From the IMG/VR virus record IMGVR_UViG_3300021425_000005: a stretch of DNA of 64,000 nucleotides. The stretch is one strand, 5' to 3'. The DNA is from a virus. A model generated the notes under the pieces. That model was given only the letters and a program-made list of their open reading frames with translations. It searched no databases and was not told where the DNA came from. Shown piece by piece: positions 1 through 45,919 of this stretch (the stretch's first letter is position 1; each line of letters opens with the position of its first letter). A program made the translations under genes and the position numbers.

Positions 1-412
1 GCTCAATGATACGCAATCCATCTTCCTGATTTTTAGCAAAAAGATATAAGTTTAATGTCAAATCATATGGCGTCGAAACAAAGGTCTTCGCCACTGATGT
101 CGCCACATTTGTTGCTTTTTTGTGGACTTGAATAGGAGAGATTTTTCTTTGAGCATCATATTGTAATGCTGAAATTTCAAACCCCATGCGAGGAAGAACG
201 ATAGCTGTTTCTCCACGAGACTCTACTGTAGGAATCTGCTCAATACGCGACAAAAACTTTTGCTTTGTTGAATATGCAAGTGGAACTCTCAATGTTTGAA
301 CAATATCACCATCAGCATTTTTTCGTTCAATGTTGATATTATTGAAGACTGTTCCGAAAGCAATAATTGCTTTACGAATATGCTCGTTATAAAATGTCTT
401 ACCTTTAAACAT
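1..412 (-). CDS. gp15: Tail sheath stabilizer/tail terminator gp15 (runs off the window edge)
   Basis: Not in the ORF track. Read by hand from ATG at 412: MFKGKTFYNEHIRKAIIAFGTVFNNINIERK...VPLAYSTKQKF...LPRMGFEI...PYDL, a T4 gp15-type N-terminus. TAATG-coupled to gp14. Confidence 0.9.
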   Translation of the reverse strand, partial: MFKGKTFYNEHIRKAIIAFGTVFNNINIERKNADGDIVQTLRVPLAYSTKQKFLSRIEQIPTVESRGETAIVLPRMGFEISALQYDAQRKISPIQVHKKATNVATSVAKTFVSTPYDLTLNLYLFAKNQEDGLRIIE

Positions 413-40237: not shown

Positions 40238-41060
40238 TATGATTTCTCCTTTTCCATTCCTTAATGTATTGAATAACATCGTGTGTCCTTTTTATATATG
40301 GGTTTTTACAAATAGTGTGCGCTGCTTCTCCTGGTTTATCAAATTCATGAATGAACGGGTGGTCAAAAGCCTCAGCGATTTCCAGAATAGTGTATGGGTA
40401 TGATGACCCAAAGTGTGCTTGTTTTGGTTTCTTTGGTGATGTCAAAAGTTTCATTATACCAGTTGTGACATCTTCAACATGAGTGAAGTCTCTTGATTTT
40501 AAACCAGTTCCAAAAACTTTTAAACTTTCGTCTTTCAAAACCTGATTTTTGAATGCTCTAACAACTGTGCTGTGTTCGCCATAATCTGCTTCTCTTGGTC
40601 CATACACATTATAGAAATACATCATATGAAACTTGATACCCCAGTGTTTTTGGTAGAAGTGCAAAGTTTCTTCGCTCATAGCCTTACCGAAAGTATAAGG
40701 ATTAGAATATGGTTCGCTATAAAGCGCACTAGAAGATTGAGCAAAGAAAAGAGGGCAGTTATATGTTGCTGCCCATTCAGCCACATGAGTTGTTGGGGCA
40801 ATATTATTCAAGATAGCATCAACAGGTTGCTCAAATGATAGACGAACTCTTGGTGTGTTTGCTAAATGAATGATTGCATCGCATGGCGGAGGCATAAAGT
40901 TACAAACATCTTCAAAGATATAATCAACATTAGGCTGATGTGTAACAAACTTACCATTTCGTTGATCGTCAACAACAGTAACCTGATAACCTTGCGTCGC
41001 AAGTTTTTCTACTAAGTGACCACCAATGAAGCCACATCCACCTGTAACAACAATATGCAT
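40230..41060 (-). CDS. NAD-dependent epimerase/dehydratase
   Basis: VTGGCGFIG, YTFGK, YNVYGP, RDFTHV. Confidence 0.88.
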   Translation of the reverse strand: MHIVVTGGCGFIGGHLVEKLATQGYQVTVVDDQRNGKFVTHQPNVDYIFEDVCNFMPPPCDAIIHLANTPRVRLSFEQPVDAILNNIAPTTHVAEWAATYNCPLFFAQSSSALYSEPYSNPYTFGKAMSEETLHFYQKHWGIKFHMMYFYNVYGPREADYGEHSTVVRAFKNQVLKDESLKVFGTGLKSRDFTHVEDVTTGIMKLLTSPKKPKQAHFGSSYPYTILEIAEAFDHPFIHEFDKPGEAAHTICKNPYIKRTHDVIQYIKEWKRRNHNA

Positions 41061-41572
41061 TAGTTCTTCGGCTTATAAAAGATATGGGCATCAATACGAG
41101 CAGTAACATTCATTGTTTCTGCCCAGTGAGGTTTGACATAATCAGCGTGATAGAAAAGCGCACCATCTGTAATATCTAAATCGTTTTTGACAGTCATCTT
41201 GGCGACTTCATATATCTGCTTGTATTTTTTGATATTCTTAATTTCATCAGATTTACCATCGCAATACCAAGAGAACTGACAACGGTTTTTATATGGATAT
41301 ATTTTTCCAGAAAATTTACTACGATAATGTGGACTCTCGTAAACTACCTCGCAAATTGTATTTGGGAAAGCATCCGACTTAACACGATTCATCGTGACAT
41401 CAGCAACGGCGATCCAGCCTGCTGTTGATTCGTTTCTTGCTTCGTGATAGATATTTTGTGTCAAACAAGCGATCTGTGGATCGATTAAAGTTTTACTGCC
41501 ATCATCATTTTCTAATGTTGGGGTTGATGATAGAGATATTAAAACTGCTGTCATCGCATCAATAAATTTCAT
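41060..41572 (-). CDS. Cell wall hydrolase (SleB/Hydrolase_2)
   Basis: CLTQNIYHEARNE, FPNTICEVV, CQFSWYCDG, YHADYVKPHW, HIFY. Confidence 0.9.
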   Translation of the reverse strand: MKFIDAMTAVLISLSSTPTLENDDGSKTLIDPQIACLTQNIYHEARNESTAGWIAVADVTMNRVKSDAFPNTICEVVYESPHYRSKFSGKIYPYKNRCQFSWYCDGKSDEIKNIKKYKQIYEVAKMTVKNDLDITDGALFYHADYVKPHWAETMNVTARIDAHIFYKPKN

Positions 41573-42240
41573 AATATACCTTTCAGATGTGATGCCATTT
41601 TTTTATGGTCTTCAATTCCTGGATGAATTAAATCTCGAGCCGAATAAGTTGTAAACTCATTTGTTAAATTTTCAATAAAAACTAAATTTGTTTTCCTGCA
41701 AACCCAGCGTATAGCGTCTCTTGTCCGCATAGTCATAATCTTAATTTCTCTACCACCAAGAAGATCTTTAGGATCGTATGACAAAAAGTCTTTGCTGGTT
41801 CCTCTTGGTTGCATCTTTGTAATAGAAATATTCTTGCCATTATCACAGAGTATTTCTCTTCTCGAGAGGGTAGAAGGATCTACAACTAATACATGTTTGG
41901 GTTTTATAACATCTATGTATTCTTTTATTGCGCGATAATAAAATTCAAACCCCACTCCTTGCCTGGATAAGTTGTAATATGACCAACCCTTTTCTTTTGA
42001 AACTATGTGGGGAAATGTATCGCTCTCATTAATTCCAACACCGAAAGTAGAACTACACCCTATCCATAACACATCTCTTGGTTCAACTATATTATCTGTT
42101 CTAAACCCCTGTTCATTGATACCATAATTGATAACAGTTTCATCAGTCCAGTTTAAACTCTCTAATATACCAGGATAACGCTCTTTATTCGATCTAAAAT
42201 TTTGTTTATTGTCACTACTGAACCAACGATAATTTTTCAC
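41569..42240 (-). CDS. SGNH/GDSL-like hydrolase
   Basis: INEQGFR, GCSSTFGVG, NLS, RDLIHPG. Confidence 0.65.
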   Translation of the reverse strand: MKNYRWFSSDNKQNFRSNKERYPGILESLNWTDETVINYGINEQGFRTDNIVEPRDVLWIGCSSTFGVGINESDTFPHIVSKEKGWSYYNLSRQGVGFEFYYRAIKEYIDVIKPKHVLVVDPSTLSRREILCDNGKNISITKMQPRGTSKDFLSYDPKDLLGGREIKIMTMRTRDAIRWVCRKTNLVFIENLTNEFTTYSARDLIHPGIEDHKKMASHLKGIL

Positions 42241-42259
42241 ATTAATCCCTCATAATTAG

Positions 42260-42577
42260 TTGGGGACTTCTGTTGCTAGGCGTCCCCTGACCCCGAGTGG
42301 CTATGCTGCGAGAGCAAAACCCTCATCTGCGAAATTATCGTTTGCAGTTACGAGTTTCTTACGGTTTAGACCATTCGGACTAGGTCGCTTGCACACCTGT
42401 TCTCCACTTACCTACTAAGCACCAGTCGATCCTATTTCGCCCCCTTCAAGAACACACTAGAGCCTGCACATAGGGATTTCCTCAGGCGTGTGCGAACCTT
42501 CCCCTAGTGTGTTCATGGTGGAGGCGGTGGGAATCGCACCCACGTCCTGTCTACCATTTAGTTCGCTTCATCGAACA
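42260..42577 (-). ncRNA. ssrA: Circularly permuted two-piece tmRNA (alphaproteobacterial type)
   Basis: Order on the minus strand: acceptor piece ending GGACGTGGGTGCGATTCCCACCGCCTCCACCA (CCA end at 42516), intervening segment 42515-42445, coding piece starting GGGGGCGAAATAGGATCGAC (42444). G3-U acceptor pair. Tag ANDNFADEGFALAA* at 42345-42301. Confidence 0.93.
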
Positions 42578-42581
42578 ATAT

Positions 42582-42612
42582 TATTTATACTATATTAGGA
42601 TAAAAAAGTCAA
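42582..42612 (-). promoter_or_regulatory. Overlapping sigma70 (TTGACT-17-TATAAA) and late (TATAAATA) promoter of ssrA
   Basis: -35 at 42612-42607, 17-bp spacer, TATAAATA at 42589-42582. Confidence 0.75.
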
Positions 42613-43271
42613 GAGTTATTTTCAGATTCCCAGATATCTCTTGCGTTAAGTAGAATGTCAACATAGTTGTCGCGAGTTTCTACAAACACTTGTGGTTCAT
42701 CGCCCTCAACAGCAATCAGTATCGCGCTTCTATTGATAGGGATGCCAGTGCGCTCTTCATACATGATTGCATATCCAGCAGCTTGAGCGAAATAACTCTC
42801 AATCCATTCTTTTTTCTTCGGTTTCTTTGAAGTTTTGAAGTCAATGATACTCAATTTACCATCGAATTCGGCAATACAGTCAACCCTACCAGCTAGTCTG
42901 AGGTGGTCAGAATACAATGCAATTTCTTGACCATGAATGTTATCAATTCGATCTAACAAGGGACGGAAGTTGTTGAACATCTCTTTGTCGAGCAAAGACA
43001 TATTGCTTGTGTCTATTTCTTTATTGTTTAAAATATCTTCACAAAGTAAGTGTATCTTTGTTCCACGAGTGGATGCTTGGCGACTAACCTTATTTGCTTC
43101 TTCCACACCAACTCTTTTTCGCCATTCACGAATAGAATCTCGGGAAAGAACACTCAATACAGTAGTGACAGATGGATATGCTGCTCCAGACTTGGTGAAG
43201 TATCTACGACTTCCGTCTGGAGCAGTCTTATCTTGCGCAAAATCTGCAAGCTGTTTCACATGGGTAAACAT
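42609..43271 (-). CDS. PD-(D/E)xK exonuclease
   Basis: YPSVTTVL, RGTKIH, AGRVDCIAE, IIDFKTS, YFAQ. Confidence 0.85.
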   Translation of the reverse strand: MFTHVKQLADFAQDKTAPDGSRRYFTKSGAAYPSVTTVLSVLSRDSIREWRKRVGVEEANKVSRQASTRGTKIHLLCEDILNNKEIDTSNMSLLDKEMFNNFRPLLDRIDNIHGQEIALYSDHLRLAGRVDCIAEFDGKLSIIDFKTSKKPKKKEWIESYFAQAAGYAIMYEERTGIPINRSAILIAVEGDEPQVFVETRDNYVDILLNARDIWESENNS

Positions 43272-43276
43272 AATAT

Positions 43277-43305
43277 AACATAACCTTAATAGCTACAAAA
43301 GTCAA
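43277..43305 (-). promoter_or_regulatory. Sigma70-type promoter TTGACT-17-TATGTT
   Basis: 17-bp spacer; ATG 5 nt downstream; no SD. Confidence 0.5.
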
Positions 43306-44054
43306 GCGTATTGTTGCTCGTATTTTTCTCTTGCTACTATATATTCCTTGACGAGATCGCTTCTTACGATATCATCAGGAGTAAACTCAAAGATTTTGAA
43401 TGATGGCATCATTTCAGCAATAACCATAAATTTTTGAAGTCCAGATTTATCAGATGCTTTTGTATATAAGTCTGATTGTCGGAAATCCCCAGCAAATATG
43501 ATTTTACTCCGTTGACCGATACGAGTCATAATAGAGTTGAGTTCCATGTCGTTCATATTCTGACATTCATCAACAATAATGATTGCATCGTCAAGCGTAA
43601 TACCTCGAACAAATGAAGTGATCATCCAATCAATCTTCTTTGCTTCTTGTAGGCGTTCAAATGCTTGCTGTTTTTCAGGAAATAATTCTTGGCACATATC
43701 AATATATGGGCGCATAAACACCTCTGTTTTTTCGACTTCGTTTCCTGGCAAGTGACCAATATCGCGGGATGCAACTGCGGAACGACACACTACGACTTTA
43801 TTGAAGTTATTAGATTTTTCGAGGATTTCCTCGATTGCTTTGTAGAGGGCAATGAAAGTTTTTCCAGTTCCTGCTGACCCATGAAGAAGGATCGCGGAAG
43901 AGGAATTATAGGCATCAAAAAATGCCTTTTGGGTGGGCGTTAAAGGATCAAAAACATCTAAGTCGTTGAGCCGTGGGATTAGTCTATTGTTTCCTTTTTT
44001 GCTAGAGGTTTCATCGTCTTGTATTAACTGAAGATTAGTTTTTCTTCGGGACAT
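43302..44054 (-). CDS. phoH: PhoH-like ATPase
   Basis: GSAGTGKT, GHLPG, RGIT, DECQN, TRIG, GDFRQSD, DIVRS. Confidence 0.92.
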   Translation of the reverse strand: MSRRKTNLQLIQDDETSSKKGNNRLIPRLNDLDVFDPLTPTQKAFFDAYNSSSAILLHGSAGTGKTFIALYKAIEEILEKSNNFNKVVVCRSAVASRDIGHLPGNEVEKTEVFMRPYIDMCQELFPEKQQAFERLQEAKKIDWMITSFVRGITLDDAIIIVDECQNMNDMELNSIMTRIGQRSKIIFAGDFRQSDLYTKASDKSGLQKFMVIAEMMPSFKIFEFTPDDIVRSDLVKEYIVAREKYEQQYA

Positions 44055-44087
44055 ATATAGACCTTATCATTAATGGTTGAAGTTAAA

Positions 44088-44390
44088 TTATACAGAACCC
44101 TCCTTAATGGATGGCGTCACTTCAGTCACATTTTGCATGATATAATGAATCATACTCTTCGCATCTGGCGAGAGTAGATGGCTTGAATGAGCTTTCTTCA
44201 TACAACTCAACGCGAAGTATGGATCGATAGCCCTTAATTCTTCTTTTTTGTAAGATTTGTTCTCGTCACCGAATATGTTGAGACAGAAGAGAACCATATC
44301 GATCTCTTCTTCGGTGTAAAGTTTTATAGCCAACCCCAGTGTGGTGGTCTTCTGAAATTGCTTCGGAAATTTTAAAATTTCTGCTGTCAT
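44088..44390 (-). CDS. Hypothetical protein
   Basis: ORF in operon order; MTAEILKFP N-terminus. Confidence 0.55.
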   Translation of the reverse strand: MTAEILKFPKQFQKTTTLGLAIKLYTEEEIDMVLFCLNIFGDENKSYKKEELRAIDPYFALSCMKKAHSSHLLSPDAKSMIHYIMQNVTEVTPSIKEGSV

Positions 44391-44401
44391 TATTTTATTT
44401 A

Positions 44402-45919
44402 TCAATAAAGTTTTTTTGATTTGTAGTTTTCAAGGAACTTTTCTGTCTTTTCTTTCAGCTTTCCCAAACCCCCAAGTTCTTCATATGACGCATTTAAATC
44501 TTCATACTTATACCCGTTACCAGTCCACTCATTAAAATGGAAGGGGGTTTCGCCATGTTTATGTTTGTTTCCTGCATACCAGTCAGCACAAACCTTACTG
44601 GCTGTATATAGATTGAAATGACCCGTATCCCAAGTAAGTCCATATTCGTGGTTGGGTTTCGTTCTAAGATGGTCAGCAAACAATTTAATGTTAGCATCAT
44701 CGACTATAATATCAGATGGTTCGTCTTTCCAGATATCATCAATGTTTACTTCCTTATAACCATATTTTTTATAATCTTTGGACAATAGAGACTTGGTATC
44801 ACTCCTAGAATAATGGTTGATAAAGAGTGGATGGATATCAATACTATTTCTCTGCCAGTTTCTATCGACCCAAGATAGCGTATCATCCAAAGATTCTTGT
44901 GTTTCATAAGGAAGCCCAACAATAAAAGACATATGCCCGTGATAGAATCCAACTTGATCATTGAAGTATTGCTCAATCTCTAAAATTCGATCCTGCATGA
45001 ATTTGGGATCGCCGCCCTTACCAATTGCTTTTGCCGAATCATAATTGAATGATTCGATACCATAGAAGTGAGCATTGAAATTCATTCTCGCTAAATGTTC
45101 AATATCATCACGTTTTTCGTTACACATCAAATCAGCACGAATGTAACCACCAAAGTTTACTTTGAATGGTAGCTTCTCAACAACATCAGCATATTTCTTA
45201 ATTTTCTCTGGGTAATCATTAAAAGTCTCATCTGCAAGATTATAATTAGTGATTCCCCAATTGTCATAGTTACGCTTCAGATTATCTTCAAAATTTTGTG
45301 CGTCAATAGTGTGGTCGTCTCTCACACCAAGAATAGGATACGAACAGAACTTACATCTAAAGATACAACCTCTAGCACATTCTAATGTAAGTAATTCGTT
45401 GGGTTGTATATAATCTGACTCGACATGATCGATACTCAAGTCTTTCATCGGGAAGGCAGGATAATCATGTAATGCGTAGATAACATGTTTACTCTGATTA
45501 CCAAATGGTTTCACAGTGGACTTTATTTCTTTGTCCTGTAAGATACTAAGAATAGCATATTCGCCATAACCAACTACAAAATAATCTGCATGTATAGCAG
45601 CAGTTCCTTCGAATACTTGACTCCCAGTTACAATTTTTAAATTGGGATACTTCTTCTTTATTCTTTTTGATACATTAATAAGATGTGGAAAGGCAATAAA
45701 AAATGTCCCACTAAATCCAATAAACTTGGTGTTTGTTGTAATATTTTTCAGTAAGTAACCATAAATCTCATCTTCGGAGAAGTAAGTGGCAAAATCTAAA
45801 ACATCGATTTCGTAACCGTGCTGTCTAAGAAAAGATGCTATACGATGTGCGCCTGTAGCACGCTTAATTGATTTGCCATGCCAATGATTGCCACTGCTTG
45901 CCAGTAATATACCATCCAT
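44402..45919 (-). CDS. B12-binding radical SAM protein
   Basis: ARGCIFRCKFC, ADETFND, GIESF, FIVGLPYET; N-terminal GAHRIASFLR domain. Confidence 0.85.
   Translation of the reverse strand: MDGILLASSGNHWHGKSIKRATGAHRIASFLRQHGYEIDVLDFATYFSEDEIYGYLLKNITTNTKFIGFSGTFFIAFPHLINVSKRIKKKYPNLKIVTGSQVFEGTAAIHADYFVVGYGEYAILSILQDKEIKSTVKPFGNQSKHVIYALHDYPAFPMKDLSIDHVESDYIQPNELLTLECARGCIFRCKFCSYPILGVRDDHTIDAQNFEDNLKRNYDNWGITNYNLADETFNDYPEKIKKYADVVEKLPFKVNFGGYIRADLMCNEKRDDIEHLARMNFNAHFYGIESFNYDSAKAIGKGGDPKFMQDRILEIEQYFNDQVGFYHGHMSFIVGLPYETQESLDDTLSWVDRNWQRNSIDIHPLFINHYSRSDTKSLLSKDYKKYGYKEVNIDDIWKDEPSDIIVDDANIKLFADHLRTKPNHEYGLTWDTGHFNLYTASKVCADWYAGNKHKHGETPFHFNEWTGNGYKYEDLNASYEELGGLGKLKEKTEKFLENYKSKKLY

Follow-up and report, generated by a model that had tools for sequence, protein, structure and literature searches.

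A predicted circularly permuted two-piece tmRNA gene in an uncultured marine T4-like phage

Does a marine phage carry its own ribosome-rescue RNA, and if so, what might it be used for? This question is raised by a locus on the minus strand of a 64,000-nucleotide (nt) stretch of viral DNA, i.e. IMG/VR record IMGVR_UViG_3300021425_000005, the whole of which is called the window in the following. An earlier note, made by reading the DNA without database searches, had proposed that the locus encodes a circularly permuted transfer-messenger RNA (tmRNA) that consists of two pieces. We are highly confident that this is an ssrA gene of the circularly permuted, two-piece alphaproteobacterial type, complete and structurally constrained, and that it resides in an uncultured marine T4-like myophage near pelagimyophage/Melnitz.

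Identity and structure of the gene

The permuted tmRNA is the sole RNA gene called by ARAGORN in the 64-kb window (42210-42609, minus strand; tag ANDNFADEGFALAA followed by a stop). Two Rfam models matched the same strand over their full lengths, with scores well above the curated gathering thresholds: RF01849 (alpha_tmRNA, cut-off 50 bits) reached 106.5 bits at 42258-42616 (E 4.6e-28), and RF04321 (tmRNA_permuted, cut-off 47 bits) reached 104.4 bits at 42301-42577 (E 2.7e-19). These matches are far beyond chance. The ARAGORN call and the two Rfam scores, i.e. the outcome of two of the checks that the earlier note had named, together with the T4-like phage genes on both flanks, bear out its identification of a phage-encoded, permuted, two-piece tmRNA. 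The novelty implied in that note could not be upheld, as permuted phage tmRNAs have been catalogued already (PMC9004378; PMC11915505) and standard RNA tools detect the gene in the window directly.

The permuted order is seen in the positions of the two ends: the CCA of the acceptor piece, at 42516, precedes G1 of the coding piece, at 42444, and an intervening segment (spacer) of 71 nt (42515-42445) lies between them. The acceptor piece of ~62 nt (42516-42577) and the coding piece of ~187 nt (42444-42258) were delimited from the sequence, ARAGORN, and Rfam. The acceptor piece begins with UGUUC (42577-42573), which is followed by a conserved GAUGAAG motif and by two strands of P2a, GGUA (42555-42552) and CAG (42549-42547). 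Its T-arm, GUGGG-UGCGAUU-CCCAC (42543-42527), has five base pairs and a loop of 7 nt, and it is located directly 5′ of the 3′ acceptor strand CGCCUCC (42526-42520), after which come the discriminator A and the encoded CCA (42519-42516). The coding piece opens with the 5′ acceptor strand GGGGGCG (42444-42438), which forms a 7-bp stem with CGCCUCC that includes the G3-U70 pair. Further along are a conserved AAAUAGGAUCGA (42437-42426), the P2a strands CUG (42425-42423) and UGCU (42421-42418), and GAACA (42402-42398); the coding piece also contains the conserved AAAUAGGAUCGAC linker. The tag frame (42345-42301), which was found by ARAGORN and is aligned with the tag region in both Rfam models, starts at the resume codon GCA, specifies ANDNFADEGFALAA in 14 codons, and ends with the stop codon UAG. 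A terminal hairpin, GGGGAC/GUCCCC, occupies 42287-42262. The T-arm, both acceptor strands with the G3-U pair and the CCA, the tag frame, and the terminal hairpin had all been placed correctly on the minus strand in the earlier note.

For comparison, IMG/VR was scanned with a motif representing the conserved 5′ end of the coding piece, which revealed at least 120 loci. ARAGORN called 77 permuted tmRNAs among the viral loci listed. The tags of most of them begin with ANDN, and most end with ALAA, RLAA or AIAA. These values bear on the possibility that the RNA is a decoy or inhibitor, i.e. that it titrates away host SmpB or blocks trans-translation of the host in some other way, as was suggested for an RNA of mycobacteriophage DS6A that has only a tRNA-like domain. 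A DS6A-like molecule inhibits tmRNA upon expression in Escherichia coli (PMC4131195, PMC11915505). A decoy would not need tag features, and their integrity thus counts against this explanation: the tag frame, the resume context, and the stop are intact in the window and 100% conserved with the viral contig L001, and tags of the ANDN...LAA type predominate among the 77 called genes. We regard a decoy as very improbable.

Structural conservation was quantified for the tRNA-like domain and for the helices that would join the two pieces. Acceptor ends were located with a pattern that did not demand complementarity, yielding 65 distinct viral tRNA-like domains. Their acceptor-stem pairs are canonical in 95-97% of the cases, G3-U is present in 63 of the 65 domains, and 62 have an ACCA end. 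Positions 5 and 6 of the acceptor stem covary, with 3-4 canonical pair types each, while positions 1-3 of the T-arm occur in 2-5 canonical pair types each and are 95-98% canonical.

The inter-piece helices were analysed in 50 distinct viral genes with a TATAAA promoter. The 5′ parts of the acceptor and coding pieces were aligned separately, and consensus pairs were sought thereafter. The inner P2a helix CAG/CUG is 99% canonical, compared with 84% after shuffling of the partners, and the second P2a helix GGUA/UGCU is 98% canonical, compared with 60%. The distal helix UGUUC/GAACA has a value of 90%, compared with 57%; an earlier trial for this helix with crude motif anchors had given a weak signal, and the alignment-based test was used in its place. 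None of 1000 partner shuffles equalled the observed pairing of the three helices, and the values for slid registers were far lower. The earlier note had described a hairpin GTTCG..CGAAC at the 5′ end of the acceptor piece. This hairpin is present in the sequence, and it competes with the distal helix. Its pairs are canonical in 72% of the homologues (62% after shuffling) versus 90% for UGUUC/GAACA, which is therefore the better-supported fold, so that the hairpin does not stand as the favoured structure; it may form at the precursor stage. Two unpaired motifs between the covarying helices are strongly conserved in the 50 loci, i.e. G(A/U)UGA(A/U)R in the acceptor piece (42565-42572) and AGUGGAG in the coding piece (42403-42409). 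The two motifs may form a structured internal loop.

A sigma-70-type promoter was read from the sequence upstream of the acceptor piece on the minus strand. It consists of TTGACT (42612-42607), a 17-nt spacing, and TATAAA (42589-42584), and because of its position the gene reaches past 42577, the start given in the earlier note. The −35 hexamer overlaps the TGA stop codon of the upstream exonuclease gene, and transcription would start near 42579-42576. A consensus promoter scanner missed this promoter because it needs a T at the last position of the −10 element. In the viral set, TTGACN-16..18-TAnnnn was found in 63 of 105 distinct tmRNA upstream regions, in contrast to 26 of 635 random windows (4%). 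The −10 element is TATAAA in 50 of these 63 promoter-bearing regions, and in 61 of them it ends 35-44 nt before the T-arm. L001 has the promoter TTGACA-17-TATAAA at the same place as the window.

Spacer and mosaic composition

The spacer is closed by a stem of 13 bp (42514-42502 with 42462-42450), which begins 1 nt after the CCA and leaves 5 nt (UUGAA) between its end and G1. The predicted folding energy is −25.6 kcal/mol (z = −2.56), and the window has a single copy of the inverted repeat, compared with none in shuffled sequences. When the 73 distinct viral spacers with a length of 40 nt or more were compared, 69 had a terminal helix of 8 bp or longer, and in 65 of the 73 the helix starts 0-1 nt after the CCA and ends 4-5 nt before G1. 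In most of them (U/A)UGAU comes after the helix, compared with UUGAA in the window. With spacer lengths from 3 to 694 nt in the viral set, the size of 71 nt is unremarkable. Three spacers (L026, L058, and L046) have 499-694 nt.

The spacer of the window contains only a mini open reading frame (ORF) of four codons and no real gene. The respective segment (42467-42487, minus strand) reads GAGGA, 7 nt, and then ATG TGC AGG CTC TAG, so that the mini-ORF is preceded by a sequence resembling a ribosome-binding site. It may be due to chance, or it may be the remnant of a spacer-borne gene. Many of the longer viral spacers (150-250 nt; L049, L073, L098, L107, L109, L030, and others) start with AAGGAG and then ATG within the closing stem, so that the discarded segment may house small ORFs. 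The spacer was also considered as a repeat or mobile element occurring elsewhere, and this was rejected: the window has one copy, and the other copies are in two viral contigs and in a metagenome record of one of them, always within a tmRNA gene.

How did this gene arise? A block of 112 nt (42436-42547, minus strand), comprising part of P2a, the T-arm, the 3′ acceptor strand, the CCA, the whole spacer, and G1-A9, is identical at 112 of 112 positions (42547-42436) to two viral contigs, L259 and L260. The proteins of these contigs have almost no similarity to those of the window, and the only matches are to the hydrolase, with 45-57% identity. Their coding pieces are just 73-76% identical to that of the window, the value varying with the way of counting, and have a different tag. 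The gene in L259 (4333-4685) is a bona fide permuted tmRNA with an Rfam score of 123.8 bits, and it is not called by ARAGORN. A tRNA-Pro(UGG) gene (L259:4252-4328, minus strand) is located within a few bases after it.

The adjoining part of the gene has a different counterpart. L001 (2187-2494), whose phage is closely related to that of the window, is identical to the window at 186 of 186 positions from 42435 to 42250, and the protein identities between the two are 96% for PhoH, 96% for the hydrolase, 98% for gp33, 99% for gp59, and 94% for gp32. The exonuclease encoded beside the tmRNA is just 82% identical, despite the 186 identical positions of the coding piece. L001 differs from the window in two pairs of the T-arm and one pair of the acceptor stem, and its spacer has only ~21 nt, the 71-nt spacer being absent. 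The 112-nt identity to L259 and L260 meets the 186-nt identity to L001 at 42436/42435, which therefore marks a breakpoint. Judged from these identities, the compensatory changes that set L001 apart from the window go back to a single block swap, in which the two strands of each helix were transferred together.

Other pairs of viral contigs show the same kind of uncoupling. The coding pieces are at least 97% identical, but the cores and spacers are very different, in L036/L047, L019/L128, and L098/L109, and the reverse uncoupling of core and spacer from the coding piece is seen for L117 versus L106, L116, and L118. The comparisons indicate that the gene evolves modularly, the tRNA-like core and the spacer having been exchanged by recombination with a distant phage. 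One could go further and view core and spacer as an exchangeable cassette, in which small mobile genes, carried there by other phages, would use the stem-closed spacer as a landing pad or would have left it as a footprint, and in which their moves would co-convert the flanking acceptor stem and T-arm. This would account for the exact 112-nt block common to the window and an otherwise unrelated phage; we offer it as a tentative idea that is rather unlikely to be correct.

Phage context and role in infection

PHROG and Pfam searches revealed baseplate wedge, hub, tail-lysozyme, tube-cap, and tail fibre proteins in the window, as well as the single-stranded DNA-binding protein gp32, PhoH, a PD-(D/E)XK exonuclease, a cell-wall hydrolase, the helicase loader gp59 (PF08993), and the late-transcription coactivator gp33 (PF16805, 39941-40279). 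The tmRNA gene sits between the exonuclease gene and an ORF of 223 amino acids (aa), and gp33 is encoded on the same strand further downstream, three genes separating it from the tmRNA. The order PhoH, exonuclease, tmRNA, ..., gp33, gp59, gp32 is common to many viral contigs. The window is thus a T4-like myovirus, and the tmRNA gene is located within it, not at a prophage end. In a tblastn search with the gp6-like baseplate protein, the nearest cultured phages were Pelagibacter phage HTVC008M, OM43 phage Melnitz, and Pelagibacter phage Mosig, with 39%, 38%, and 36% amino-acid identity, respectively. A megablast search of 20 kb against cultured phages gave only a similarity of gp32 to cyanophages, and blastn of the tmRNA gene against cultured phages gave only a patch of 36 nt in Rhodobacter phage RcSimone-Hastad. 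This patch (MW677525.1, 32297-32332) matches the conserved 5′ end of the coding piece at 97%, lies under no annotated feature, and may belong to an unannotated tmRNA.

The host relationship of the gene was addressed by comparison with bacterial genomes. BLAST against a sample of 401 genomes from Alphaproteobacteria, the class to which a Glycocaulis genome belongs, gave only short conserved patches, the best with 54.5 bits over 44 nt. A scan of bacterial genomes with the T-loop pattern gave mainly Caulobacterales and unrelated one-piece tmRNAs, all of them weak, with at most ~120 bits summed. Viral contigs match the gene at 163-361 bits. These scores place the gene in a viral lineage of tmRNAs. 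In architecture and tag it conforms to the alphaproteobacterial type. The host of Melnitz is a gammaproteobacterium (OM43), yet the Melnitz tmRNA is alpha-type (PMC9004378), and because of this combination the tmRNA type is not a safe host marker.

The same data argue against a non-functional passenger, i.e. a fragment of a host ssrA left by imprecise excision or at an attachment site, or an assembly chimera. Prophages commonly integrate at tmRNA genes and can contain fragments of them (PMC9004378), and the G+C content of the gene (0.48-0.51) is above that of the window (0.35-0.41). However, the two pieces are both complete and come with a promoter of their own, phage genes lie on both sides at normal spacing, the position of the tmRNA is syntenic in many T4-like viral contigs, the structural covariation is extensive, and the sampled Alphaproteobacteria contain no close match, in contrast to the viral contigs. 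A passenger is therefore the least credible of all explanations, with next to no probability.

What would the RNA do during infection? A mechanism can be proposed from the two-piece tmRNA of Caulobacter and general tmRNA biology (reviewed in PMC3985003), and the elements on which it draws, i.e. the promoter, the permuted order, the alanine identity elements, the T-arm, the inter-piece helices, the linker, and the tag frame with its ALAA end, can be read in the window. Early in infection, host RNA polymerase would transcribe the gene, and the spacer hairpin would hold the two cut sites near each other. RNase P would cleave before G1 (42444), 3′ processing would trim the transcript to the CCA (42516), and the acceptor and coding pieces would remain base-paired. 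The RNA would then be charged by the host alanyl-tRNA synthetase and carried to stalled ribosomes by host SmpB and EF-Tu. Stalled ribosomes would be freed, and the nascent chains would be tagged with ANDNFADEGFALAA and degraded by proteases of the ClpXP type. The benefit is likely to be that ribosomes continue to be recycled during the shut-down of host transcription and the degradation of mRNA by the phage. We infer that plain ribosome rescue during host shut-off is the most likely role in infection, and treat selective proteolysis and counter-defence as minor alternatives.

Selective proteolysis, which was proposed for Melnitz by Buchholz et al. (PMC9004378), would mean that the phage tmRNA mainly tags nascent host proteins early in infection and that their amino acids are recycled into phage proteins. 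The early-type promoter and the intact ALAA degron fit this proposal. It is clearly improbable in our judgement, as tmRNA acts only on stalled ribosomes and there is no known way in which it could pick host over phage messages. The same early-type promoter in front of a full-function tmRNA, and the wide spread of such genes in lytic marine myophages, are also compatible with the idea, put forward in the earlier note, that the phage copy is a counter-defence spare part, which replaces the host tmRNA or offsets stalling when defence nucleases cut tRNA, mRNA or tmRNA. Nothing that was examined supported it: a literature search gave no defence system that targets tmRNA, ARAGORN found no tRNA genes in the 64-kb window, and the phage tag and tRNA-like domain retain host-type identity elements instead of escape changes. 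We give counter-defence a similarly low probability.

Several observations weigh against a functional two-piece tmRNA with this role. The pseudoknot PK1, upstream of the resume codon, is modelled only as a stem of 3-4 bp (GGUG/GACC, with one mismatch) in the RF04321 alignment; minimum-free-energy folding cannot show pseudoknots, and L259 lacks 14 nt of the PK1 region. No terminator was found after the coding piece, and its 3′ end is approximate (42258 is the end of the model). The 64-kb window contains no SmpB-like ORF (tblastn, E up to 10), and function therefore depends on compatibility with the SmpB of the host, which is presumably used; the dependence on host SmpB, RNase P, and proteases that the earlier note had postulated is upheld. 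The compensatory pairs that distinguish the window from L001 are weaker evidence of selection for that pair, because they stem from one block swap and not from independent mutations. Finally, the literature examined shows no expression, processing, charging or tagging for any phage two-piece tmRNA.

Two further genes deserve mention. The 223-aa ORF (41569-42240, minus strand) starts 18 nt after the end of the tmRNA model and is separate from the tmRNA, with GAGGG as a ribosome-binding site of its own; there is no terminator between the two, and they are probably co-transcribed. It is absent from L001 and had no match in Pfam, PHROG or the phage tblastn search. By eye, GCSSTFG near residue 61 and DLIHPG near the C-terminus recall blocks I and V of SGNH/GDSL hydrolases, a resemblance of motifs alone. 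A B12-binding/radical-SAM protein of 505 aa (PF04055, PF02310; 44402-45919, minus strand) is encoded between a 105-aa ORF and the carbamoyltransferase gene; it is missing at the same place in L001, indicating a recent gain or loss.

Comparison with known systems

Phage two-piece tmRNA genes were described in 2022 and are common in marine viral contigs, and the gene in the window adds one member. In that study, tmRNA genes were present in 402 of 18,146 phage genomes, 53 of 133 unique phage tmRNA structures were two-piece, 50 of these 53 came from marine or aquatic phages, and permuted tmRNAs were found in 17 of 47 Melnitz-like contigs (PMC9004378). Earlier lists of phage tmRNAs comprised one-piece molecules only (PMC4131195), while the tmRNA database of 2025, from which the RF04321 model stems, has 79 unique bacteriophage tmRNAs (PMC11915505). 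The window thus represents one more uncultured marine myophage with its own ribosome-rescue RNA in a documented group, and it confirms that such genes are widespread and under structural selection. The gene alone opens no new question. The additions are modest: the gene is a clean recombinant, and the comparisons support the inter-piece architecture and the stem-closed spacer. The mosaic and the uniformly stem-closed spacers offer concrete handles on the processing and exchange of phage tmRNA genes.

The RNAs of the mycobacteriophage Bxz1 group, Bacillus phage G, and DS6A (PMC4131195) resemble that of the window in being phage trans-translation RNAs for which no phage SmpB was reported. In contrast, the tmRNAs of the Bxz1 group and phage G are unpermuted, the DS6A RNA has no tag frame, and the phage groups and hosts are unrelated to those of the window.

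The Caulobacter crescentus type (RF01849; Keiler et al. 2000, as reviewed in PMC3985003) has the permuted order, the G3-U70 pair, the encoded CCA, the conserved AAAUAGGAUCGAC linker, and a 3′ terminal hairpin with a GCAACAGAA loop in common with the window. The tag start ANDNFA... is also common to both, and the genomes of the Caulobacter group give ANDNFAEEFAIAA, ANDNFAEEYAIAA, and similar tags. However, the acceptor piece of the window is shorter, since the outer P2 strands of RF01849 are deleted and a single distal helix of 5 bp is present instead. The gene in the window further differs in that it is phage-borne, has a longer and stem-closed spacer, and has no close copy in the sampled alphaproteobacterial genomes.

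Melnitz, HTVC008M, and Mosig are cultured phages with a gene of this kind. Their DNA is too diverged from the gene in the window for detection by blastn, the tags are ANDNYVPVDYALAA, ANFNEYALAA, and GEDNFALAA, compared with ANDNFADEGFALAA, and the window has three extra genes between the tmRNA and gp33. With ~0.38-0.40, the G+C content of the window is presumably nearer to that of cyanomyophages. In Melnitz and Mosig a glutamine riboswitch is joined to the 3′ end of the tmRNA, which according to the authors is not a defining feature (PMC9004378); RF01739 had no match at E up to 5 in the window at 40500-44500, and the positive control in Melnitz (L005:1926-1974) had 52.8 bits. Buchholz et al. 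2022 (PMC9004378) place the two-piece tmRNA of Melnitz between an early promoter, which precedes it, and the transcription coactivator, which follows it, and the window has in common with the Melnitz group the position upstream of gp33, gp59, and gp32 as well as the early sigma-70-type promoter. The T-loop UGCGAUU of the window resembles UGCAAUA of HTVC008M and UGCAACU of Mosig. Like the window, all three are T4-like myophages with a permuted, alpha-type gene and similar Rfam scores, which in our rerun were 106.7 bits for Melnitz, 83.8 bits for HTVC008M, and 67.6 bits for Mosig.

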